A stretch of DNA of 63,974 bases, counting the filler, from Actinomycetota bacterium (GTDB lineage: Bacteria; Actinomycetota; CADDZG01; JAHWKV01; JAOPZY01), in NCBI GenBank assembly GCA_025963875.1. It is 8 parts of 8 records of this genome, joined end to end, with 100 filler letters (N's around TTAATTAATTAA, not from the genome) between each part and the next. Parts side by side here need not be neighbours in the genome. Positions count along the whole stretch, not along the records: positions 37,380 to 44,617 come from JAOPZY010000224.1; 7 more parts are not named here. One strand, 5' to 3'. The first letter of the stretch is position 1; the number at the start of each line of letters is the position of its first letter. Positions 8,581-61,219 of this stretch are shown one piece after another. The translations under genes and the position numbers were made by a program. The notes beneath the pieces were generated by a model, which saw nothing but the letters and a program-made list of their open reading frames with translations, ran no database searches and was not told the origin of the DNA.

Positions 8581-8680
8581 NNNNNNNNNNNNNNNNNNNN
8601 NNNNNNNNNNNNNNNNNNNNNNNNTTAATTAATTAANNNNNNNNNNNNNNNNNNNNNNNNNNNNNNNNNNNNNNNNNNNN
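8581..8680. other. Artificial contig spacer; identical spacers at 19795-19894, 26448-26547, 31530-31629, 37280-37379, 44618-44717, 61120-61219
   Basis: 100-nt block of Ns with central TTAATTAATTAA (stops in all six frames); genes are cut at the edges. Confidence 0.98.
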
Positions 8681-19794: not shown

Positions 19795-19894
19795 NNNNNN
19801 NNNNNNNNNNNNNNNNNNNNNNNNNNNNNNNNNNNNNNTTAATTAATTAANNNNNNNNNNNNNNNNNNNNNNNNNNNNNNNNNNNNNNNNNNNN

Positions 19895-26447: not shown

Positions 26448-26547
26448 NNNNNNNNNNNNNNNNNNNNNNNNNNNNNNNNNNNNNNNNNNNNTTAATTAAT
26501 TAANNNNNNNNNNNNNNNNNNNNNNNNNNNNNNNNNNNNNNNNNNNN

Positions 26548-26883: not shown

Positions 26884-28842
26884 GTGTGTCCCGAAAGCGA
26901 GGTGGTTTCGACGTAGAAGGTCGACAGGCCACAGAGCGTGCTGTGCCAGTGATGGAGGTAGGTCCTCCGGGTTCGCCGTGCAGGCGGAGAGCCCAAACCG
27001 CCCCCAAGCTGCTGCGGTCAAGAGCCGTGGTGGTGAGCGTTGGGGGAAAAGGCCCGCCACCAGCGGGTCAGGTGAGCGACGAGAAGACGAGCATGTGCAA
27101 ACCACTGCTGACGCATCGAAACAAACAATGACGGCATCGAAACCGGGGTGGTGCGCGAACCCCGGGACAAAGGCGCACCGAGCGGTGCGCCCTCAATCAG
27201 GGGGCTTCCCTGCCTGCCGCCCTGGTGGTGCCCGGTGTATAGGTGGCGTGAGCTCGTCGCAGGCGCTGGCATGGAACGGGAGAACCTGCCGCCTCCGAAC
27301 CGTCATCCGGTCTAAATGGGCCAGCAATGCCCCCCGGGTGCGAGAGGGAGACCCTCAAGCGGCGGACACCGCAAGAGGCAGAGTACCGGGAGGAGCAGGG
27401 GCGGACCGGCCCGTAGTAGCGAGGAAGGCCCCGTAATGGGGCTGGAGCCAAGGGAGCCGGGCAGGTCAGGTCGCCAGGAGGCCAACCCGCAAGGGAAGGA
27501 GCCGATGGGTGGACCGAAGCTGAAGGTGAAGTCGTTTGAGATCCCCAAGCGCCTCGTTGCCGAGGCGTGGGAGAAGGTCCGTGCCAACGACGGAGCCCCG
27601 GGGGTGGACGCCGCCAGCATCGCCGAGTTCGAGGCCGACGAGGACAGCAACCTCTACAAGCTCTGGAACCGGATGAGCTCAGGCAGCTACCTCCCGAGGC
27701 CCGTGCGGGCGGTGGATGTCCCGAAGGACCATGGGGAGGGGGTCAGGCGACTCGGTGTGCCCACGGTGGCGGACCGGATCGCCCAGACCGCAGCAGCGAT
27801 GCTGCTGGAGGAGAGGCTGGAGCCGATCTTCCACCCCGACAGCGACGGCTACCGTCCCGGGCGAGACTGCCACGACGCCCTGGCCAAGGCCCGTCAGCGC
27901 TGCTGGAAGCAGGACTGGGTGCTCGACCTGGACATCCGGGCCTTCTTCGACAGCGTGCCCCATGACCTCCTGATGGGCATGCTCCGGCACCACACCGAAT
28001 CGCGCTGGGTCCTGCTGTACGTCGAGCGGTGGCTGGTAGCCCCCATGCAGATGCCCGACGGGACCCTCGTCGAGCGGGAGAGGGGAACCCCGCAGGGCTC
28101 CCCGATCTCGCCCCTGTTGGCCAACCTGTTCATGCACTACGCGTTCGACACCTGGATGGCCGACCACTGGCCATCCTGCCCGTTCGAGCGCTACGCGGAC
28201 GACATCGTTGTCCACTGCGACACCGAGCAGAAGGCCCGCAACCTCTGGGCCGCCATCGCCAACCGGCTCGGGGCCTTCCGCCTCGAGCTGCACCCCGAGA
28301 AGACGAAGATCGTGTACTGCAAGGACACGAAGCGCCGGGGGGACTTCGAGCACACCAGCTTCGACTTCCTCGGCTACACCTTCCGGGGGCGCAGGGTCAA
28401 GGGCCGACAGGGCTACTTCGTCGGCTTCAACCCTGCCATGAGCGGCAAGGCACGGAAGGCGGTCAACCAGAAGGTCAGGGCCTGGCACCTCAACCGCCGC
28501 AGCGGAACGGATCTGTCCGGCCTCGCCGAGGACATCAACCCCAAGGTCCGAGGCTGGATCAACTACTACGGAGCCTTCTACCGCTCCGCGTTGTACTCCC
28601 TTGCGGGCCACATCGAATCGCACCTGATGCGGTGGGCCATGCAGAAGTTCAAGCGACTCCGGGGCAAGCCCAAGCGGGCATGGGCCTGGCTCAACGCTGC
28701 ACGCCAGCGAAAGCCTCGCCTGTTTGTCCACTGGTGGATGCTCCCAATCACCGACCGCCGACCTGTGGGAGCCGTATGACGGGAGACTGTCACGTACGGT
28801 TCTGCGAGCGCCTGGGGGTGAGATTCCCCCGGGCGACTCACC
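26884..28842 (+). mobile_element. Group II intron (about 1.96 kb)
   Basis: 5' GTGTG; domain V GAGCCGTATGACGGGAGACTGTCACGTACGGTTC (28769-28802); domain VI ending ACTCACC; removal restores the host reading frame. Confidence 0.9.
27505..28779 (+). CDS. ltrA: Group II intron reverse transcriptase/maturase (no endonuclease domain)
   Basis: GAPGVD, RRLGVPTVADRIAQ, DLDIRAFFD, GTPQGSPISPLLAN, RYADD, FDFLGY, RGWINYY. Confidence 0.95.
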   Translation: MGGPKLKVKSFEIPKRLVAEAWEKVRANDGAPGVDAASIAEFEADEDSNLYKLWNRMSSGSYLPRPVRAVDVPKDHGEGVRRLGVPTVADRIAQTAAAMLLEERLEPIFHPDSDGYRPGRDCHDALAKARQRCWKQDWVLDLDIRAFFDSVPHDLLMGMLRHHTESRWVLLYVERWLVAPMQMPDGTLVERERGTPQGSPISPLLANLFMHYAFDTWMADHWPSCPFERYADDIVVHCDTEQKARNLWAAIANRLGAFRLELHPEKTKIVYCKDTKRRGDFEHTSFDFLGYTFRGRRVKGRQGYFVGFNPAMSGKARKAVNQKVRAWHLNRRSGTDLSGLAEDINPKVRGWINYYGAFYRSALYSLAGHIESHLMRWAMQKFKRLRGKPKRAWAWLNAARQRKPRLFVHWWMLPITDRRPVGAV

Positions 28843-31529: not shown

Positions 31530-31629
31530 NNNNNNNNNNNNNNNNNNNNNNNNNNNNNNNNNNNNNNNNNNNNTTAATTAATTAANNNNNNNNNNNNNNN
31601 NNNNNNNNNNNNNNNNNNNNNNNNNNNNN

Positions 31630-37279: not shown

Positions 37280-37764
37280 NNNNNNNNNNNNNNNNNNNNN
37301 NNNNNNNNNNNNNNNNNNNNNNNTTAATTAATTAANNNNNNNNNNNNNNNNNNNNNNNNNNNNNNNNNNNNNNNNNNNNGAGGTCGCCTGGGCGATCATG
37401 GCCGAGGTGCTGGCCGTCCGCGCCGGCCACCGGGCCGGCTTCCTCCGTGACCGCAAGGGTCACATCCACCCCCGCGCCGACTCCGTCTCCGAATCAGCTG
37501 AGACCGGCAACGCCACGTCCGCTGCGGCCTCGGTGGGGGCTGCGTGACGCGAGCGTCAGCCCCCACAACCGACGGTCTCGACTTTACCAAGGGCAACTAT
37601 CCAGACGTTGCAGCGCGCCTGGAAAAGTGGCGCTTCCCAGAGCGTCGTATCCACCACTCTTCGTGGGCGTATTGCCTGGTAGTCATGTGGACTTTGTGAT
37701 TCCGGAACAGTTAGGGTTTGTTTCCGTGTAACCACGGGGCGTCGCTAGAGGAGGGGGATTAGAA

Positions 37765-38319
37765 GTGCTGATTGAGAACGAGTTCACCATTCCAGCACCG
37801 GTGGACCAGGTGTGGAAGTACATGAACGACTTCCCGCGCGTCGCGCGGTGCATGCCGGGCGCCGAGATCGTCTCGGCAACCGATCGCCAGGTGAAGGGCC
37901 GGGTCAAGATCAGCATGGGCCCGCTCAAGCTGGCATTCTCCGGAGTCATCGACATCCTGGAGAAGAACGACGGCTCCCACCGGGTGGTCATGAAGGCCAC
38001 GGGCTCGGAGGAGAAGGGCAAGGGCCAGGCCTCCGCCACGGTGACGTCGACGATGCAGCAGGCCGGTGGCGGCACCCGGGTGATGCTCTCCCAGGACATC
38101 CAGATGACCGGTGCCATCGCCCAGTACGGCCGAGGCATGATGCAGGACGTCATCGGCTCGCTCATGAAGCAGTTCGCCAACTGTGCAGCCGGTGACATCG
38201 CAAAGCCCGGGGCCGCCGGCAAGGGCGCCGGCAAGGTCAAGGCGATGAGCGGTTTCTCACTCATGCTCATCTCCGCTAAGGCCTTCTTCAAGAACATCTT
38301 CAAGTTCGGAAAGAAGTAG
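37765..38319 (+). CDS. coxG: CoxG/SRPBCC family protein with C-terminal amphipathic tail
   Basis: IENEFT.PAP, ARCMPGA, GPLKL.FSG, KATG.E.KGKG.A, GAIAQYGRGMMQDV; tail ISAKAFFKNIFKFGKK. Confidence 0.8.
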   Translation: MLIENEFTIPAPVDQVWKYMNDFPRVARCMPGAEIVSATDRQVKGRVKISMGPLKLAFSGVIDILEKNDGSHRVVMKATGSEEKGKGQASATVTSTMQQAGGGTRVMLSQDIQMTGAIAQYGRGMMQDVIGSLMKQFANCAAGDIAKPGAAGKGAGKVKAMSGFSLMLISAKAFFKNIFKFGKK

Positions 38320-38399
38320 GGCAGTCTTAGTAGGGGTAACGCACCCCTCGTGCGTTTACATAGCGTCGGGGAGTCGGCGCGAGAGAAGAGGGAGGGTCC

Positions 38400-38672
38400 A
38401 TGGGTGGTCCAGGAGGGCTTTTCGCAGCGGGGCTTTTGGTCCTACTGCTGGTGGCAGCAATCCCGTACCTGGTTTCGCTACAGCGGGTGATGAGTGCCAT
38501 CAACAGTATTCGGGGCCATGTCGATGGCATCCTCGAGAACGGCGTCATCCTCACGGGTGAGCTTGACGGGGTGCCGGAACTGCTTGAGATCACCGACAGC
38601 GTGGTCAAGGAGGTCGCCGTGGGCGCCACCCGCTACGCCAATGCGGTGGATCGGGTGGTGCGTGGCGGTTAG
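38400..38672 (+). CDS. Hypothetical single-TM + helical protein 1 (90 aa)
   Basis: GGAGG RBS; N-terminal TM ending YL, then amphipathic helix. Confidence 0.75.
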   Translation: MGGPGGLFAAGLLVLLLVAAIPYLVSLQRVMSAINSIRGHVDGILENGVILTGELDGVPELLEITDSVVKEVAVGATRYANAVDRVVRGG

Positions 38673-38745
38673 GAGCGGCCTCTCCTGTCATGAGGTACCC
38701 GTTTCAGAGGAAGCACAACCTTTGATGGAGAGGAGGAAGGCCTAG

Positions 38746-39009
38746 ATGAGCATTTTCGGATGGCTCGACCTGGTGTTGATCGCCGTGGTCGTCATATCGC
38801 TGACCAGCTATCTCTACCGCATCATCGCCCAGCTGAACCACGTCACCTTCACCTTGGGCACGATCATCGCCGGTGTGGCGGCGATCGCCAACCAGACCCA
38901 GACCGTGCCGCCGGTGGTGAGTAACGTGAACAACAACCTCGCTCCCGTCCGTGCAAAGGCCGACGCCCTCGCGGGTCGGGCCGGAGGCAGTCGGCGCGGA
39001 CACACGTAG
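38746..39009 (+). CDS. Hypothetical single-TM + helical protein 2 (87 aa)
   Basis: AGGAGGAAGG RBS; TM ending YL then heptad I/L/V pattern. Confidence 0.8.
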   Translation: MSIFGWLDLVLIAVVVISLTSYLYRIIAQLNHVTFTLGTIIAGVAAIANQTQTVPPVVSNVNNNLAPVRAKADALAGRAGGSRRGHT

Positions 39010-39090
39010 GACTGATGGTCAGTAACGTGTCATAGACGTTCACGGGAGAACCAAAGGAGGCACCGGTATGGAGGGAAGGAGGTTGAGCCC

Positions 39091-39378
39091 ATGGTAACGC
39101 TAGCGGCGAGTCTGTTGGCCAGTCCGACGCAGGCCAATCTCACCGGCTGGTACATCGGATTCGTCATCACGACGATCGCAATTGTCATCGTCGTCATCGA
39201 GGTGCAGGCCATCCTCGTCCTCGCCCGCAACATCGGGGTGCAGGCGCAGGAAGCGATTCGGGGGCTGGAAGCATGCTGGACCAATACGGCCCCGTTGTGG
39301 GATCTGCAGACCACCATTGATCACGCGTCAACCATCGTCAATGACCTGCTCACGGTTCGAAAGTCTCTCGGGGGGTGA
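39091..39378 (+). CDS. Hypothetical single-TM + helical protein 3 (95 aa)
   Basis: AAGGAGG RBS; TM, then helix with NT..L. Confidence 0.8.
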   Translation: MVTLAASLLASPTQANLTGWYIGFVITTIAIVIVVIEVQAILVLARNIGVQAQEAIRGLEACWTNTAPLWDLQTTIDHASTIVNDLLTVRKSLGG

Positions 39379-39388
39379 TGGGAGGAAA

Positions 39389-39739
39389 ATGATTGCACCA
39401 CTCGTTGCAGTTGCTGCACATCTCCCGGCAGCCTCGTCTGTGCCGGGGTACGCCCCCGAGGAAGTGACCTGGTGGTGGATGGCCGTCGGTCTCGGCCTCG
39501 TCGTCGTCCTCGTCGTCATCGGCGTGCTGACGTTGCTTATCCGTCTCGTCCAGGACATTGACCGGGGTGTGGAGGGCGTCGTCGAGACGCTCGGCCAGAC
39601 CGCCCGGAACACTGGCGAGAGCTTCCTGATCGCCGACACCGCGGGTCAGGTCGATGCGGTGCTGGCCGAGGGTCTGAATCACCACCTGTTCCTCACCCGG
39701 GTTCTGTCGGGCTCTGGCAAGAAGGCGGTGCCGCGCTAA
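39389..39739 (+). CDS. Hypothetical single-TM + helical protein 4 (116 aa)
   Basis: GGAGG RBS; WWWMAVGLGLVVVLVVIGVLTLL, DIDRGV, ARNT; TAATG overlap with the next gene. Confidence 0.8.
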   Translation: MIAPLVAVAAHLPAASSVPGYAPEEVTWWWMAVGLGLVVVLVVIGVLTLLIRLVQDIDRGVEGVVETLGQTARNTGESFLIADTAGQVDAVLAEGLNHHLFLTRVLSGSGKKAVPR

Positions 39740-40083
39740 TGAGTACACTTCTCGTCGCATTCTCGCTGATAGACGTCATCCTGCTGGTCGGCGTTCTGCT
39801 CATCTACCTGAACTGGGTAGCCGGCCTCCTGCAGAAGATCGACGATGGGCTGGCCACCACCGTGGACATGGTGGTCCAGATCGTCGGCCACGCCGAGCCG
39901 ATCGTGCCGGGTCTCCAGCAGATCAACCGGACGCTCGGGATCATCTCCGGGGCGCTCCCCCTGCTCTACCGCCTCGCGGAGCGGATCGAGGGTGTGGCCG
40001 CCGGCCGCATCGCCACCGGCTCCAACACCGCAGGCACGATGAGCGGCACCGGCAACTACACGGGGGTTGCCGGCATCAAGTAA
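39739..40083 (+). CDS. Hypothetical single-TM + helical protein 5 (114 aa)
   Basis: TM ending YL, HAEPIVPG..INRT..I.GALPLLY..AE. Confidence 0.8.
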   Translation: MSTLLVAFSLIDVILLVGVLLIYLNWVAGLLQKIDDGLATTVDMVVQIVGHAEPIVPGLQQINRTLGIISGALPLLYRLAERIEGVAAGRIATGSNTAGTMSGTGNYTGVAGIK

Positions 40084-40358
40084 CTGGCTTCAGGAAGTAA
40101 GTCGAGCTGGGGCAGTGGGGTTTGCGGTAGCGGTTGCGTTTCACAGGTCGACGTGGACGGATCACGAGGTGGGGAGCCGGTGACGGCCAGGGCTCGGGGG
40201 GCCCGGTCGGCATCTCGGCTGCGGGGCCCACCTCTGGCTCCGGCACTTTGCAGGACGGCACCAGGTTTGTTCCCTATGTGGGGCGTTTCGGGATCCGGGA
40301 TGGTTCGATCGGGCCGGGTCCCTACAAGAGGAAGGTGAAGGGGGTCAAGTTGGAGCGT

Positions 40359-40931
40359 ATGCGCAGGCTCATGAAGACCGAGGGGGGCCAGGGAGCAGTC
40401 GGCCTCGTCGTGGTCGTCGTGGCAGTTGTTGTGTCGTTCTACCTTCTGTTCAGGACCGTTCGAGTGGCCGACCGGATCAACGCCAAGGCCTCGACGATCC
40501 AATCGGGTGCCACCAGCATCAAGGGTGACACCTCCGTTATCGGGCAGCTCACGCACACGAACGACGTCGCGTCGTCGATTCTGAAGACCGCTGGCGGCGC
40601 CGCACCCGACGGCAGCCAGTCGCTGCAGGCCAAGCTGAACACGATCATCGCCACGGCCAAGTCCATCGACAACTTCGCGGTGTCCGTCAACGGCACGGCG
40701 ACCGCCATCAACGGCACGGCCCACGCCATCAACGGCACGGCAGCTTCTATCCTCAACACCGCCAACGCCATCAACGGTGACGCGACGGCGATCAAGGCTG
40801 GACTGGACCAGGCAGTCACGCAGGCAGGACTGATCCTTGGCGACGCAGACACCATCAAGGGCGAGGCGCGGTCCATCCGCACGTCCACGTGCAACATCGA
40901 CAAGGCCACCGCGCAGAAGTGCAGCGGGTAG
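40359..40931 (+). CDS. Membrane-anchored heptad-repeat protein 6
   Basis: EGGQ + TM; tandem (A/S)INGTAx heptads; two C-terminal Cys. Confidence 0.8.
   Translation: MRRLMKTEGGQGAVGLVVVVVAVVVSFYLLFRTVRVADRINAKASTIQSGATSIKGDTSVIGQLTHTNDVASSILKTAGGAAPDGSQSLQAKLNTIIATAKSIDNFAVSVNGTATAINGTAHAINGTAASILNTANAINGDATAIKAGLDQAVTQAGLILGDADTIKGEARSIRTSTCNIDKATAQKCSG
40686..40790 (+). repeat. Imperfect 21-nt tandem repeat encoding INGTA heptads
   Basis: TCAACGGCACGGC occurs three times at 21-nt spacing, followed by degenerate copies. Confidence 0.8.
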
Positions 40932-40983
40932 GCCTCAGCCTCCCGATGTCAAGACGAGCTACGGATAAGAAGGAGAACTGAGG

Positions 40984-41610
40984 ATGGCGCAGCGTCCAGC
41001 AGCATATGCACCGGACATCGCCGCTCCACTGATGAGCGCGAACCGGTGGCTGAAAGTGTGGGTTTCCATCGGGGTCCTCGTGGTCCTGGTGGTCATCGGC
41101 TTCCTGCTCGGCATCATTTCGGCCCTTGAGGCCATCGACAGGTCACTCGGCACCACGACGGGCAACGTGACCGGCATCAACGGCGACGTGAACCCGCTGC
41201 CAGGTCACGTGGCGAACATCAACGGCACCCTGGAGAAGATCGACGCCTCGCTGAAGCCCATCCCGGCCCAGGCAGACGCGATCATCGGCTCACTGACCGA
41301 CATCAACTCGCAGCTGACCACGATCGACCCGTCCCTGAAGGACACCGAGGGCACCCTGGTCACCACCGAGTCGGGCCTGAACGCCATCGAAGGCGTCCTG
41401 GTCAACATCGAGAACCCGGTCGCCCGAGGCATCCTGAGCGACGTCGGCCAGATCGTGGGCGACGGCAGCAAGGGCCTCATCGCTATCCAGAACGACCTGG
41501 TCGACGCAAAGACCAACCTGAACAGCAACGGCAACATCCAGGCCCACGCATCCGACATCTGCAACAGCACCGCCATCAGGCTGCTGGGTGGCAACCTGCC
41601 CTGCGGCTAG
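40984..41610 (+). CDS. Membrane-anchored heptad-repeat protein 7
   Basis: TM then I/L heptads rich in N/T/D; two C-terminal Cys. Confidence 0.8.
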
Positions 41611-41641
41611 AGACAGCTAAGCGCCTTCAAGGAGGAAATGC

Positions 41642-42247
41642 ATGAGAGGCTTTCGCAACGGTGAACGGGGGCAGGCGGGTATCGCCCTCATCATCGTGAT
41701 CGCCTGGGCGCTGTCTGCGGTGCTGATCCTGACCCGGACGCTGGTGGCTGCGCAGGAGATCAACAACAAGGTGACGGACATCACATCCAAGCTGGCGGGC
41801 GCCAAGGGGGACACCTCCTACGTCTCGCAGCTGAACAAGACGGAGAACACGGCGAACTCGATCCTCCAGGCTGCCCAGCCGCTCACGGGCCAGCTTGAGA
41901 TCGTGAAGAACACGGCGGCCCACATCCAGACGCAGGTGGATGGGATCACCCCGCCGGTGGTGGACATCAACAAGACGGTGCACGTGATCCATGACCAGGT
42001 CGGCTCGATCCTGGCGACGGCTCAGAGCATCAACGGCACGCTGACCGCGATTCGCAACACGCAGTCGAGCGTGATCCTGACCGACGTGGTGAACATCAAG
42101 GCCGACACGTCGTCGATCATCCAGAACGTCCACACGATCGACGCCAACCTGTGCCACGCGAACTACGGGGTCGCACTGGGAATTCTCAGCGCCGGCCACG
42201 GTGGCGACCCGGGGTGCAACAACAACACGATTCACCCTGCGGCCTAG
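41642..42247 (+). CDS. Membrane-anchored heptad-repeat protein 8, paralog of protein 6
   Basis: AAGGAGG RBS; ERGQ + TM; RT...IN.K...I...KGDTS...QL..T...A.SIL shared with protein 6; two C-terminal Cys. Confidence 0.8.
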   Translation: MRGFRNGERGQAGIALIIVIAWALSAVLILTRTLVAAQEINNKVTDITSKLAGAKGDTSYVSQLNKTENTANSILQAAQPLTGQLEIVKNTAAHIQTQVDGITPPVVDINKTVHVIHDQVGSILATAQSINGTLTAIRNTQSSVILTDVVNIKADTSSIIQNVHTIDANLCHANYGVALGILSAGHGGDPGCNNNTIHPAA

Positions 42248-42270
42248 TTCGTCCGCCGGGACCCGCTTCT

Positions 42271-42298
42271 CCAGCACCCCCCACGAGGGGGGTGCTGG
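42271..42298 (+). terminator. Hairpin after the eight-gene membrane cluster
   Basis: CCAGCACCCCCC-ACGA-GGGGGGTGCTGG, perfect 12-bp stem. Confidence 0.65.
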
Positions 42299-42379
42299 CG
42301 TTGTGGGGAGGTTAGGTGTCTATCGCGCACATGCGCGCGGTAGCGGACTAACATCGGCCTCCCGCAGTATCTTGAGCCC

Positions 42380-42991
42380 GTGATCTCGGGCATCGTGCTG
42401 GCTGCTGGTACGTCGTCCCGGCTCGGCCAGCCCAAGCAGCTCATGGACCTCGGGGGACGGCCGGTCCTCCAGTACGTCCTGGAGGCGGGGGCCGCGGCGG
42501 GGCTGGATGAGCTGGTCGTCGTCCTGGGGCACCGGGCGGAGGACGTGGCGGCTGCGCTCAGCCTTCCGCCCGCCGCCAGGACGGTCGTGAACCCCGACTA
42601 CGCCACGGGCCAGGCGAGCTCGATGCGAACGGGGCTGGCCGCCGCCTCCCCCTCGGCCCAGGCGGCGTTGCTGCTCCTGGGCGACCAGCCAGCGATGCGC
42701 CCCGCCGACATCCGGGCCGTCGTAGACGCCTACCGGTCCGGCGCGGGCCCGATCGTCCAGGGCAGCTATCGCGGCGAGCCCGGCCACCCCGTGCTGTTCG
42801 ACCGGAGCGTATGGCCGGACCTGCTCGCCGTCGAGGGGGACCGGGGGGCCCGGGATGTGATCAAGGCCCACCCCGACTGGGTGACGCGGGTCGACCTGAA
42901 CGCGGACCTCCCGCCCGACCTTGACACGATGGACGACTACGAACGTATGAAGCAGTTGGGCGATGACGGCCCCCTTCAGCGCCTTCTTTGA
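42380..42991 (+). CDS. mocA: Molybdenum cofactor cytidylyltransferase-like nucleotidyltransferase (MocA family)
   Basis: LAAGTSSRLGQPKQL, NPDYATGQASS, LGDQP, GHPVLF, GDRGAR, DLDT. Confidence 0.8.
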   Translation: MISGIVLAAGTSSRLGQPKQLMDLGGRPVLQYVLEAGAAAGLDELVVVLGHRAEDVAAALSLPPAARTVVNPDYATGQASSMRTGLAAASPSAQAALLLLGDQPAMRPADIRAVVDAYRSGAGPIVQGSYRGEPGHPVLFDRSVWPDLLAVEGDRGARDVIKAHPDWVTRVDLNADLPPDLDTMDDYERMKQLGDDGPLQRLL

Positions 42992-43073
42992 GTGCTGAGC
43001 AATGCATATGCGTGTTCATCACCCAAAGAAGGTTGCAGGGCGTCCAGGGAGCCGGTGTCGTTCGGCACGGGTC

Positions 43074-43304
43074 CTAGCGGCCCTGGAGGGCCTGCTCGAT
43101 CTCCCGGTACTCGGGATGGCGCTTCGTGGCCTTCTTGGAGAACACCAGGTCGCCGTCGACCATCACCTCGAAGACCCCGCCGCCGGAGGGGATCAGGGTC
43201 AACTCGGTGATGTCGCGGGGGCGGTCCGCAAGGAGCTTGGCCGCCAGACCGACGGCCCTGTCCGTGTAATTTCAGACGACGCAGTATTCGATGCTGATCT
43301 TCAC
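43074..43304 (-). CDS. SelW/SelT/SelH (Rdx) family selenoprotein, 76 aa, Sec at codon 11
   Basis: Manual translation MKISIEYCVV-U(TGA 43272-43274)-NYTDRAVGLAAKL...LIPSGGGVFEVMVDGDLVFSKKATKRHPE; GGGGGAG RBS. Confidence 0.9.
43239..43257 (-). promoter_or_regulatory. Bacterial SECIS element
   Basis: mRNA hairpin GGCCGUC-GGUCU-GGCGGCC starting 14 nt after the UGA; GGUCU as in the E. coli fdhF SECIS apical region. Confidence 0.75.
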
Positions 43305-43365
43305 AGCTCCCCCCTTTCGCCTCGGCCGGTGGGCGGGTTGTCCTCCCATCCATCGTACCGGGCTG

Positions 43366-44589
43366 CTAGAGGGCGGTGACCTCGTAGCCGTCGTCCTCGA
43401 GCCGGGCGATCAACTCTTTGATGTGGTCCGGCCCCCGGAGCTCGACCTGGATCGACACCTCGACGTCGCCGAGGCTGGAGTGCAGCACGCCCTCACGCCG
43501 GTGCTCGATGCCGACGACGTTGACGCCCACCTCCGCGATGGCGCCCGACAGACGCTGTAGCTCGCCGGGGCGGTCTCTGAGCCGGGTGCGGAAGGAGAAG
43601 TAGCGTCCGGCCGACGTCATGCCGAAGCGGATCACCCGGAGCAGCAGCAGCGGGTCGATGTTGCCGCCCGAGAGGATCACGACGGCGGGGAAGGTGATCG
43701 GGGAACGCCGCCGCATGGCTCCCGCCACGCCCACGGCCGCCGCCGGCTCGACCAGCAGCCGGGCACGCTCGGTCATGAGCAGCAGTCCCTCGGCGATCTC
43801 GCCCTCGGTGACGGTCACGACATCGTCCACCAGCGCGCGGACATGCTCGAACGTGAGGTCCCCGGCCCGCTTGGCCGCGAGGCCGTCGGCGATGGTGGAG
43901 ATCTCGGGGAGCGTCACCACCTCGCCGGCCTCGAGGGAGCCGGTAAGCGTCGCTGCGCCGACCGGCTCGACGCCGATGATCCGCAGATCGGGCCGCAGGG
44001 CCTTGGCCGCCGCAGCGATGCCCGACACGAGGCCCCCGCCCCCGATGGGCACGATGATCGACTTCACATCGGGCACCTGCTCCAGGATCTCCAGCGTGAT
44101 CGTCCCCTGCCCGGCGATGACGTCGCGGTGGTCGAAGGGGTGCACCATCACCGCACCGGTCTGCTCAGCGAACTCCCGGGCTGCGGCATGGGACTCGTCG
44201 TAGATCGAGCCCTCGAGCACGACCTTGGCGCCGTACTTGCCCGTCGCCTCCACCTTGGGCAGCGGCGCCCCCGCGGGCATGAACACCGTGGAGGTGACGC
44301 CGAGCAGCGATGCCCCGAGGGCGACGCCCTGGGCATGGTTCCCGGCGCTGGCGGCAACGACGCCCCGGGCACGCTCCTCGGGCGACAGGTTCGCAATTCG
44401 GTTGTAGGCTCCCCTGATCTTGAAGGAACCGGTGCGCTGGAGGTTCTCGCACTTGAGCAGGGTGGTACCTCCGGCCATTCTCGACAGAATCCGTGACGGC
44501 CACACCGGTGTCCGCAGGCACACCTCCTCCAGGCGCCTGCCTGCTTCCCGGATCTCGTCCAGGGTCACGAACTCACCCGTCGATGTCAT
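43366..44589 (-). CDS. ilvA: Threonine ammonia-lyase with C-terminal ACT domain
   Basis: KCENLQRTGSFKIRGA, ASAGNHAQG, GGGGL, SGGNID, DRPGEL. Confidence 0.92.
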   Translation of the reverse strand: MTSTGEFVTLDEIREAGRRLEEVCLRTPVWPSRILSRMAGGTTLLKCENLQRTGSFKIRGAYNRIANLSPEERARGVVAASAGNHAQGVALGASLLGVTSTVFMPAGAPLPKVEATGKYGAKVVLEGSIYDESHAAAREFAEQTGAVMVHPFDHRDVIAGQGTITLEILEQVPDVKSIIVPIGGGGLVSGIAAAAKALRPDLRIIGVEPVGAATLTGSLEAGEVVTLPEISTIADGLAAKRAGDLTFEHVRALVDDVVTVTEGEIAEGLLLMTERARLLVEPAAAVGVAGAMRRRSPITFPAVVILSGGNIDPLLLLRVIRFGMTSAGRYFSFRTRLRDRPGELQRLSGAIAEVGVNVVGIEHRREGVLHSSLGDVEVSIQVELRGPDHIKELIARLEDDGYEVTAL

Positions 44590-44717
44590 GCGGGGATTCT
44601 GCCATCTCCTGGCGGTANNNNNNNNNNNNNNNNNNNNNNNNNNNNNNNNNNNNNNNNNNNNTTAATTAATTAANNNNNNNNNNNNNNNNNNNNNNNNNNN
44701 NNNNNNNNNNNNNNNNN

Positions 44718-57394: not shown

Positions 57395-57844
57395 CTAGCG
57401 GATCTGGCCCTTCAGGCAGTTGGCGAAGCCGGTCATCATGGCGCCGGCGACGTCCTGCATCATGCCCCGGCCGTACTGGGCCACGGCCCCCGACATGTTG
57501 ATGTCCTGGCTGACCTTGACGTGGGTAGAGCCGCCCTGGTCGGTGATCTGGGCGACGACGTTGGCGTCGGCCTGGCCCTTGCCCTTCTCCTCCCGACCGG
57601 TCGCCTTCATGACCACGCGGCCCGTCTGGTTGTCCAACTCGGTGATGGTGACCGTTCCAGAGAAGGTGAGGTCCATGGCCCCCATCTTGACCTTCATCTT
57701 GCCCTTGAAGGTCTTGTCGTCGACGATCTGGGTGAGTTGGGCGCCGGGCAGGCACTTGGCCACCTTCTCGACGTCCAGCAGGTACGCCATCACCTTGTCA
57801 GGCGCGGCGGGTACGGTGAACTCGTTCTCGATGATCATTCCCAT
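57395..57844 (-). CDS. CoxG/SRPBCC paralog without C-terminal tail
   Basis: IENEFTVPA, CLPGA, VMKATG.EEKGKGQA, AQYGRGMMQDV; AGGAGG RBS. Confidence 0.85.
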   Translation of the reverse strand: MGMIIENEFTVPAAPDKVMAYLLDVEKVAKCLPGAQLTQIVDDKTFKGKMKVKMGAMDLTFSGTVTITELDNQTGRVVMKATGREEKGKGQADANVVAQITDQGGSTHVKVSQDINMSGAVAQYGRGMMQDVAGAMMTGFANCLKGQIR

Positions 57845-61119: not shown

Positions 61120-61219
61120 NNNNNNNNNNNNNNNNNNNNNNNNNNNNNNNNNNNNNNNNNNNNTTAATTAATTAANNNNNNNNNNNNNNNNNNNNNNNNN
61201 NNNNNNNNNNNNNNNNNNN

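Follow-up and report, generated by a model that had tools for sequence, protein, structure and literature searches.

Eight small membrane-anchored helical proteins encoded between coxG and mocA in an Actinomycetota genome: a putative scaffold of the HylTM family for molybdenum CO dehydrogenase

The window analysed here, a 63,974-base stretch of DNA from an Actinomycetota bacterium (assembly GCA_025963875.1), carries a row of ten co-oriented genes in which coxG and a mocA-like gene enclose eight genes for small, membrane-anchored helical proteins, called P1 to P8 below. The initial annotation had proposed this row as a candidate novel system, possibly a stalk or quinone conduit for a molybdenum (Mo) enzyme. 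The window consists of 8 contigs joined end to end, the joins being marked by paired 44-N runs flanking a ttaattaattaa linker at positions 8581-8680, 19795-19894, 26448-26547, 31530-31629, 37280-37379, 44618-44717 and 61120-61219. Genes on the two sides of these 7 join points are therefore not neighbours, and only the 7.2 kb at 37380-44617 counts as the true context of the row. All ten genes are present on this contig as open reading frames (ORFs; Table 1). Clear ribosome-binding sites had been reported for most of them; a purine-rich stretch does precede 9 of the 10 starts, while the sequence upstream of the MocA-like start is not purine-rich.

Table 1. Features of the contig at 37380-44617 (positions count along the window; TM, transmembrane helix; CODH, carbon monoxide dehydrogenase; 1l, group 1l hydrogenase)
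Feature	Position	Strand	Basis or counterpart
xdhC/coxI-type CODH maturation gene, 3' end, cut by contig start	37380..37544	+	frame-0 reading to stop (first 165 bases); synteny with L001, L002
coxG, 184 aa	37765..38319	+	PF06240; SRPBCC domain, Gly/Ala/Lys linker, C-terminal hydrophobic helix
P1, 90 aa, single TM and helix	38400..38672	+	counterpart of fourth interposed ORF of 1l-type loci
P2, 87 aa	38746..39009	+	counterpart of fifth interposed ORF of 1l-type loci
P3, 95 aa	39091..39378	+	counterpart of first interposed ORF of 1l-type loci
P4, 116 aa	39389..39739	+	counterpart of second interposed ORF of 1l-type loci
P5, 114 aa, start overlaps P4 stop	39739..40083	+	counterpart of third interposed ORF of 1l-type loci
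P6, ~190 aa (alternative starts 40335-40371): basic N-tail, TM, 7-residue I-N-G-T-A-type repeats, Cys pair	40359..40931	+	
P7, 208 aa: TM N-in by charge, Pro-broken helices, C-terminal Cys pair	40984..41610	+	
P8, 201 aa: P6 paralog, C-terminal Cys pair	41642..42247	+	
12-bp GC-rich hairpin just past P8 stop	42271..42298	+	folding versus shuffles
MocA-like molybdenum cofactor cytidylyltransferase, 203 aa	42380..42991	+	PF12804, TIGR03310
Threonine dehydratase ilvA (PALP and ACT)	43366-44589	opposite	

CoxG matches PF06240 over residues 6-142 (E 1.8e-17, 63.8 bits, cut-off 22.2), leaving a 42-residue tail. The tail to which the initial annotation had pointed can be read from the sequence as a Gly/Ala/Lys linker and a hydrophobic C-terminal helix, and the protein combines a COXG/SRPBCC domain, a linker and a C-terminal membrane helix. 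A second CoxG-family gene lies on another contig of the window (57395-57844, minus strand); its 149-aa product matches PF06240 at 8e-21, has no C-terminal tail and is encoded beside an ABC-2 transporter pair. The MocA-like protein matches PF12804 (E 4.9e-39, 134.5 bits), and TIGR03310 is its best NCBIfam match at a score below the cut-off (E 1.1e-45, 155.9 bits versus 186.45). The predicted MocA role is supported by synteny with L051 (related loci and genomes are designated by L and G numbers), a form I cox cluster in which a homolog with 53% identity to the window's protein is encoded directly after coxG.

The 55-aa fragment at the contig start has no Pfam match. The two loci most closely related to the window's (L001 and L002; protein identity 60-99%) share the gene order XdhC-YHS, XdhC, coxG, P1-P8, mocA, and in both the gene upstream of coxG encodes XdhC_CoxI plus XdhC_C; on the strength of this synteny we read the contig as starting inside an xdhC/coxI-type gene. 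The L002 contig itself begins (2-400), in front of the XdhC-YHS gene, with a stretch whose translation repeats the unit KRGGGVCPPDTP; this may be either a tandem repeat or an assembly artefact. As judged from gene content and synteny, the eight genes of the window's lineage separate two genes that are neighbours in a form I cox accessory row. The catalytic genes coxM, coxS and coxL are missing from the contig, as had been stated, and from the other contigs of the window; Pfam annotation likewise found no hydrogenase gene on any window contig.

P1-P8 all stay below every Pfam and NCBIfam cut-off, in agreement with the earlier statement that no enzyme motif is recognisable in the eight. The closest approach is to DUF948 (PF06103), to which P1, P6 and P7 show weak similarity (13.7-16.1 bits; best homologs 26.7-29.1); the gathering cut-off being 37.2, they are not members. 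Each of the eight carries a single hydrophobic stretch near its N terminus, which in P1-P5 is one 19-mer of mean hydropathy 2.4-3.1, and the single TM helix predicted for these proteins holds up throughout. The periodic helix said to follow it varies in strength: of 1000 shuffles, 0-3 exceed the heptad-type periodicity (~3.5 or 7.0) of P1, P2, P5, P6 and P7, and 34-51 exceed the weaker periodicity of P3, P4 and P8. The description of P6-P8 as TM proteins of ~190-210 aa with N/T-rich heptads and a C-terminal Cys pair stands as to length (190-208 aa), TM helix and Cys pair, the last recurring in most homologs; the heptad part of it applies strongly to P6 and P7 and less so to P8.

All-versus-all comparison with hhalign, using profiles built from related loci, linked P1, P3 and P4 mutually (96-97% probability), P2 with P5 (97.9%), P5 with P7 (97%), P2 with P7 (93%), P1 with P6 (95%), P6 with P8 (99.9%) and P7 with P8 (98%). 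The similarity spans the TM helix and the helix that follows it, and by these profile links the eight proteins are paralogs of one family without a Pfam entry. Since composition may inflate all-versus-all scores, we gave more weight to the family-specific, ORF-by-ORF pattern described below. The family is very large: among 8000 candidates scored, 7103 sequence clusters matched the P4 profile at E 0.001 or better, all of them unnamed or 'hypothetical' and none with a Pfam domain, while P7 gave 57 homolog clusters, and P8 272 representatives at E 0.001 or better. A search of genome contigs with a P7 profile (9-row alignment) yielded 26 related loci, a degree of conservation far beyond chance. 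Comparison of P6, P7 and P4 alignments with PDB profiles returned designed or generic coiled coils, stalk fragments of trimeric autotransporter adhesins and chemoreceptors, all at E 4e-6 or worse, which we judged compositional. The ESM Atlas, entered via a P7 homolog (P0004), gave only Actinomycetota 'hypothetical protein' clusters, with structure rows under a TM-score of 0.5. One related locus (L022, 11188-11688, minus strand) carries two single-TM ORFs of 82-83 aa, one of them P1-like, next to adjacent small- and large-subunit hydrogenase genes, a TPR protein gene and a CooC-type ATPase gene; they resemble the 'two small proteins (82-92 aa)' that PMC9561532 mentions for group 1m clusters.

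Weak P7-profile matches just upstream of hydrogenase large-subunit genes, found in a sample of 301 genomes of the phylum, led us to loci of the group 1l type. On one contig of 2.86 Mb (L053) a small-subunit gene (PF14720 and PF01058) is followed by five ORFs of 93-104 aa, the large-subunit gene (PF00374), an endopeptidase-sized ORF with no Pfam match, a NifU-Rieske gene and hypF. This arrangement is the one published for group 1l, namely HylS, HylTM1-5, HylL, HupD and the Rieske-type HylE (bioRxiv 10.1101/2020.08.06.239558; also PMC9561532). Scored with hidden Markov models (HMMs) of the window proteins, the first interposed ORF best matched P3 (41.7 bits), the second P4 (70.3 bits), the third P5 (42.3 bits) and the fifth P2 (46.1 bits); the fourth scored 42.1 bits with P1 and slightly more, 44.2 bits, with P6. 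P4 and the second ORF align end to end, and intermediate sequences bridge both groups. Three further loci (L052, L054 and L055) repeat the pattern of small-subunit gene, small TM ORFs and large-subunit gene. The comparison with group 1l short ORFs that the initial annotation had suggested is thus positive, at 41-70 bits, and by this ORF-by-ORF correspondence P1-P5 are the CODH-linked, one-to-one counterparts of the five small membrane proteins of 1l-type loci.

It follows that for P1-P5 the label of a candidate novel system claimed too much. They belong to the already named HylTM1-5 set, for which an AlphaFold3 model is in print (PMC13554262, 2026); in it, tube-like scaffolds keep the cytosolic enzyme at the membrane. 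What appears to be new here is the P6-P8 trio and the presence of a HylTM-type set in cox clusters: the papers that we found on HylTM concern hydrogenase, and neither they nor those on TM proteins of group 1l, on CoxG and menaquinone or on coiled coils in atmospheric hydrogen oxidation describe either, with the proviso that supplementary 1l gene tables may list such ORFs.

The link to CODH comes from loci in which the set and the catalytic genes stand together. The complete five-gene set lies inside form I cox operons of three further Actinomycetota genomes, in the orders coxG, P3, P4, P5, P1, P2, coxM, coxS, coxL, coxE (L063), coxM, coxS, coxL, coxG, P1, P2, P3, P4, P5 (L064) and coxM, P3, P4, P5, P1, P2, coxM, coxS/L, coxD-type, coxE (L062), and the coxL product has the motif AYRCSFR in all three. 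In L008, coxL (AYRCSFR), xdhC-YHS and coxG are followed directly by P1-P8, and in L019 and L020 P6-P8 and P3-P5 lie just upstream of coxM, coxS and coxL. L051, from genome G004, has coxE, coxL (AYRCSFR), two xdhC genes and a touching pair of coxG and mocA. A P-type set lies on its other strand at a distance of 4-10 kb, and the same genome carries two P6-P8-type sets 8 kb apart. Altogether, a coxL with the AYXCSFR signature accompanies a homologous module in L008, L020, L051, L062, L063 and L064, and coxG directly adjoins the set in four lineages (that of the window, L008, L063 and L064). The CoxG that precedes the set in L063 (3729-4166) is only 146 aa long and ends with its SRPBCC domain, without a membrane tail, which raises the question of whether the small TM proteins replace the tether.

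The same layouts bear on the idea that the proteins form a membrane platform for maturation, that is for the insertion of Mo, Cu, S or Ni, and are not part of the working enzyme. The window's set does lie among the accessory genes xdhC, coxG and mocA, and other loci adjoin hyp and coxD- or coxE-type genes. However, the 1l-type loci place the ORFs between two structural genes, the L063 set stands between coxG and coxMSL, and the terminal Cys pair of P6-P8 is the only conserved motif of a metal-binding type, so that we consider a maturation platform quite improbable.

According to the initial annotation, homolog clusters without any association with redox genes would have spoken against a role in trace-gas oxidation; such an association is in fact seen, the clusters lying with cox, [NiFe]-hydrogenase and RuBisCO genes. 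We annotated 16 of the 26 P7-related loci, those with the longest flanks, leaving out L001 and L002 (annotated later) and the short or edge-cut L003, L007, L011, L015, L016, L021, L025 and L026. Hydrogenase or hyp genes were present in 8 of the 16 (L005, L009, L010, L012, L013, L014, L022 and L024), cox genes in three (L008, L019 and L020) and RuBisCO with CbbX in two (L006 and L023). The remaining three (L004, L017 and L018) had none of these, and the extension of L004, which is L051, does reach a cox cluster. The RuBisCO large- and small-subunit genes and CbbX-type AAA genes are located within 5-8 kb of the module (L006, 1069-4071; L023, 16438-19644). Trace-gas oxidation and form IE RuBisCO have been reported to go together, and these two loci are in line with that. 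DUF4383 membrane protein genes occur within a few kb of the module in 6 of the 16 loci (L006, 4306-4731; L009, 14335-15350; L013, 7672-8139; L019, 6675-7175; L022, 6428-6862; L024, 13328-13807), and a gene for an FtsH-type AAA/M41 protease stands beside it in L004 (7494-8846) and L005 (457-2016).

Such neighbours could also suit general envelope or membrane stress proteins of dormant, desiccated cells, resembling DUF948/YtxH proteins or late embryogenesis abundant (LEA)-like repeats and merely co-located with persistence genes. The RuBisCO and FtsH-type genes would fit, as would the weak DUF948 matches of several members, the 'YoxC' labels that some sources give to homologs and the variable number of short Ala/Thr/Asn/Gly-rich repeats in P6 and P8. 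Against this, the DUF948 scores span 13.7-29 bits, under the cut-off, and a fixed five-plus-three order, one-to-one orthology and insertion in structural operons would not be expected of general stress proteins; we see little chance that this is what the module is.

In the phylum sample a P4-like gene was found in 24 of the 301 genomes. Adjacency was compared by hand among the matches listed, so the counts that follow are lower bounds. In at least 13 of the 24 genomes a listed large-subunit match stands no more than 12 kb from the P4-like gene, and in G153 (the genome of L005) a small-subunit gene is 3.6 kb away from it. A CoxL that scores above the TIGR02416 cut-off is found within 12 kb of the P4-like gene in at least 6 genomes, and G004 has its P6-P8 set 6 kb from coxL. 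For G166, G218 and G257 nothing on the same contig as the P4-like gene appeared among the matches listed. Thus at least 21 of the 24 carriers have a hydrogenase subunit gene or a form I coxL no farther than 12 kb from a family member, and all 24 have either a PF00374 match or a CoxL above the cut-off, which overall occur in 155 and 63 of the 301 genomes, respectively. The PF00374 comparison (20 of 24 carriers versus 155 of 301) is weak taken alone, because many matches represent other hydrogenase groups or weak Nuo-like proteins. Several of the genomes are unpublished, namely G005 (L017, L037), G053 (L056), G153 (L005), G125, G023, G244, G093, G273 and G179; they bear on L005 and L017 in the 16-locus tally, on L056, and on G053, G125 and G153 in the 24-genome tally. 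Without them the conclusions hold, at 11 of 14 loci and 18 of 21 genomes.

These numbers leave room for another assignment, in which the module serves a [NiFe]-hydrogenase that the organism encodes elsewhere, as is supposed of the HylTM proteins, and its position in cox clusters reflects only that trace-gas genes are co-regulated or transferred together. Hydrogenase loci are where the family was first noted, at least 14 sampled genomes adjoin hydrogenase genes as against at least 6-7 that adjoin coxL, and trace-gas genes are described as often transferred (PMC13554262). Moreover, the close relatives G001 and G002 do carry hydrogenase genes on another contig. In these two genomes, however, the subunit genes are adjacent, with NifU and DUF5947 partners and no small TM ORFs between them, a layout that we take to be that of group 1h, and group 1h loci are not known to depend on such ORFs. 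The only P4 copy in each of the two is the cox-linked one, and G002 has two AYRCSFR coxL fragments. Four carriers (G004, G217, G218 and G305) have no PF00374 match at E 1e-10, and in cox operons the five genes stand either between coxG and coxM or immediately behind coxL-coxG. We rate service to a distant hydrogenase as unlikely for the window's set and favour service to Mo-CODH.

How the proteins may be arranged is suggested by the charges that flank the TM helix. Homologs of P1-P5 have on average 0.2-0.4 Lys and Arg residues in the N-terminal flank versus 1.3-2.7 in the C-terminal flank, which argues for a short N terminus outside and a helical part in the cytoplasm. P7 shows the reverse, with means of 1.57 before the TM helix and 0.61 after it and many acidic residues following, and its helical part would be outside the cytoplasm, probably together with those of P6 and P8. 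On this charge pattern a single stalk made of all eight proteins, as first imagined, is doubtful. The Cys pair of P6-P8, found at variable spacing (7-37 residues) in most homologs, fits an extracytoplasmic disulfide loop better than a metal site.

P6, P7 and P8 form a conserved trio that is always encoded in that order, and their lengths change together. The distance from the end of the TM helix to the first Cys is 146, 147 and 140 residues in the window's P6, P7 and P8, 181, 186 and 187 in L017, and 195, 202 and 210 in L009; over 13 loci the three distances co-vary with r 0.96-0.98, these loci including close kin and amounting to about four length classes rather than 13 independent points. 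The differences arise as 7-residue repeats of the I-N-x-T-A type are gained or lost: whole repeat blocks (~8 to 20 units; columns 130-230 of the P6/P8 alignments) distinguish the homologs of P6 and of P8, and the trio members change length together between lineages. From this co-variation we read P6-P8 as assembling side by side and in register.

Expression of the row was approached through contigs of RNA libraries. Four soil RNA libraries, each from a different study, contain contigs that cover the region from coxG to P8, mostly at 95-99% likeness, and single contigs bridge coxG-P1-P2-P3, P4-P5-P6, P5-P6-P7 and P6-P7-P8. Such contigs show neither strand, ends nor level, and DNA may be present in these libraries. 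Coverage is thin or missing beyond ~42300, in the 3' part of mocA and in ilvA, which is no evidence for an operon end. The stretch also recurs nearly word for word in soil metagenomes (at least 20 runs from 14 studies, one of which is a possible source, so at least 13 other studies). Given this spread over soil metagenomes and RNA libraries, the module belongs to common soil bacteria. The hairpin noticed before mocA is real: its stem is a perfect 12 bp, and a 146-nt stretch around it folds at z -3.9 relative to shuffles. It is kept in L001 with a compensatory change from A-U to G-C, while L002 has a different GC hairpin in the same place. A scan for terminators with a T-run did not pick it up, and its three hits equal the shuffle expectation; the hairpin is likely, as far as its sequence tells, a terminator or an RNA end-stabiliser without a U-tract. 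Elsewhere in the window, at 27316-28779 on the plus strand, lies a gene for a group II intron reverse transcriptase/maturase (RVT_1 and GIIM).

Taken together, these observations lead us to the following reading, to which as a whole we give a probability of roughly 0.55: the contig is the distal end of a form I Mo-CODH (cox) cluster, and the eight genes between coxG and mocA encode a helical membrane module, a scaffold of the HylTM family that is used here by Mo-CODH together with CoxG. Each of P1-P5 would have a very short N terminus outside, one TM helix and a cytoplasmic helix of 50-90 residues. The five would most likely come together as a hetero-oligomeric helical bundle or tube at the inner face of the membrane, and this bundle may dock Mo-CODH, the soluble trace-gas oxidase, next to CoxG, the menaquinone shuttle tethered to the membrane. 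P6-P8, the elongated paralogs, would keep their basic N-terminal tails inside and expose a heptad-rich part of 140-235 residues and a disulfide-capable Cys pair outside the cytoplasm, the three most likely joining in register into a hetero-oligomer, which is probably trimeric. Candidate roles for them are to stabilise or position the TM bundle or to make contact with the wall. The gene structure, the family relations, the correspondence with the 1l-type ORFs, the repeated linkage to cox and hydrogenase genes and the co-varying lengths are observed here; topology, assembly, docking and any share in quinone transfer are inferred.

Several points weigh against this reading. An AYXCSFR coxL together with coxM and coxS, by which a cox cluster is recognised, is absent from every contig of the window, and the link to CODH therefore rests on synteny in relatives. 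Two of the annotated loci (L017 and L018) have no redox genes within ~10 kb, and the P3-P5 trio of G004 stands on another contig (L060) among unrelated genes. Composition can inflate scores in hhalign and HMM comparisons among proteins that combine a TM helix with a coiled coil. Charge counts, the sole basis of the topology, are ambiguous for P6 (2.85 versus 2.65) and P8 (2.78 versus 1.96), and opposite orientations of short and long paralogs would be unexpected if they are homologous through the TM helix and the first helix. Several Pro residues in the helical part of P7 argue against one continuous coiled coil, and the AlphaFold2 monomer of P7, all-helical as it is, is unreliable (pLDDT 55, pTM 0.22). 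Finally, the RNA-library contigs are compatible with expression and are not proof of it.

A bolder version of the scaffold, to which we would give only slim odds, unites all eight proteins in one trans-membrane machine. A cytoplasmic five-helix tube that docks Mo-CODH or hydrogenase with CoxG would be joined, via a shared TM bundle, to a hetero-trimeric, disulfide-capped stalk of 20-30 nm running through the cell wall, its length tuned in each lineage by the number of 7-residue repeats. If true, such a stalk could fix trace-gas oxidases at defined sites of the envelope in monoderm soil Actinomycetota, or could offer a hydrophobic path for gas or quinone across it.

The interest of the Mo-CODH scaffold lies in the hand-over of electrons from soluble high-affinity CODH and hydrogenase to the membrane, which has been solved only for Huc, with its HucM tube, and in part for mycobacterial Mo-CODH, with CoxG. 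Here, group 1l-type hydrogenase loci and form I cox operons alike contain members of a very large and as yet unnamed family of tiny membrane proteins, and the distribution of this family suggests one shared membrane-docking module for both main atmospheric trace-gas enzymes in soil Actinomycetota. P6-P8 add an undescribed putative three-protein stalk whose member lengths co-evolve.

Among known systems the nearest is HylTM1-5 itself. As in that set, P1-P5 are five consecutive genes for single-pass proteins of ~85-120 aa, homologous to the ORFs between small- and large-subunit genes, the comparison being with the actinobacterial L052-L055 and not with the proteins of Hymenobacter roseosalivarius; the cytoplasmic position that charge counts suggest for their helices agrees with the published tube-like model. 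Unlike HylTM1-5, the window's set stands between coxG and mocA and not between hylS and hylL, no hydrogenase gene being present in the window; its gene order is rotated (P1 P2 P3 P4 P5 versus P3 P4 P5 P1 P2), and three long paralogs accompany it. DUF948, of unknown function, shares with several homologs and with P1, P6 and P7 an N-terminal TM helix followed by a helical region, but all scores of the P family fall under its gathering cut-off.

The best functional analogy for P1-P5, as far as the description in the paper goes, may be HucM, a membrane-associated coiled-coil tube that scaffolds Huc, a high-affinity soluble trace-gas oxidase, and through which menaquinone is proposed to pass (PMC10017518). 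In contrast to the five different TM proteins proposed here, HucM is described there as one protein, a homotetramer whose C-terminal tube is only peripherally associated with the membrane. CoxG of the Mycobacterium smegmatis Mo-CODH is described as a carrier tethered to the membrane, which extracts menaquinone and hands it on to the soluble enzyme (PMC12202499). The window's CoxG is built likewise, its SRPBCC domain being followed by a flexible linker and a C-terminal membrane helix, while the CoxG of L063 differs in lacking the tail. The account of the M. smegmatis system in PMC12202499, as available to us, describes no small TM partners, whereas in the window, L008, L063 and L064 coxG stands directly before the five-gene set.

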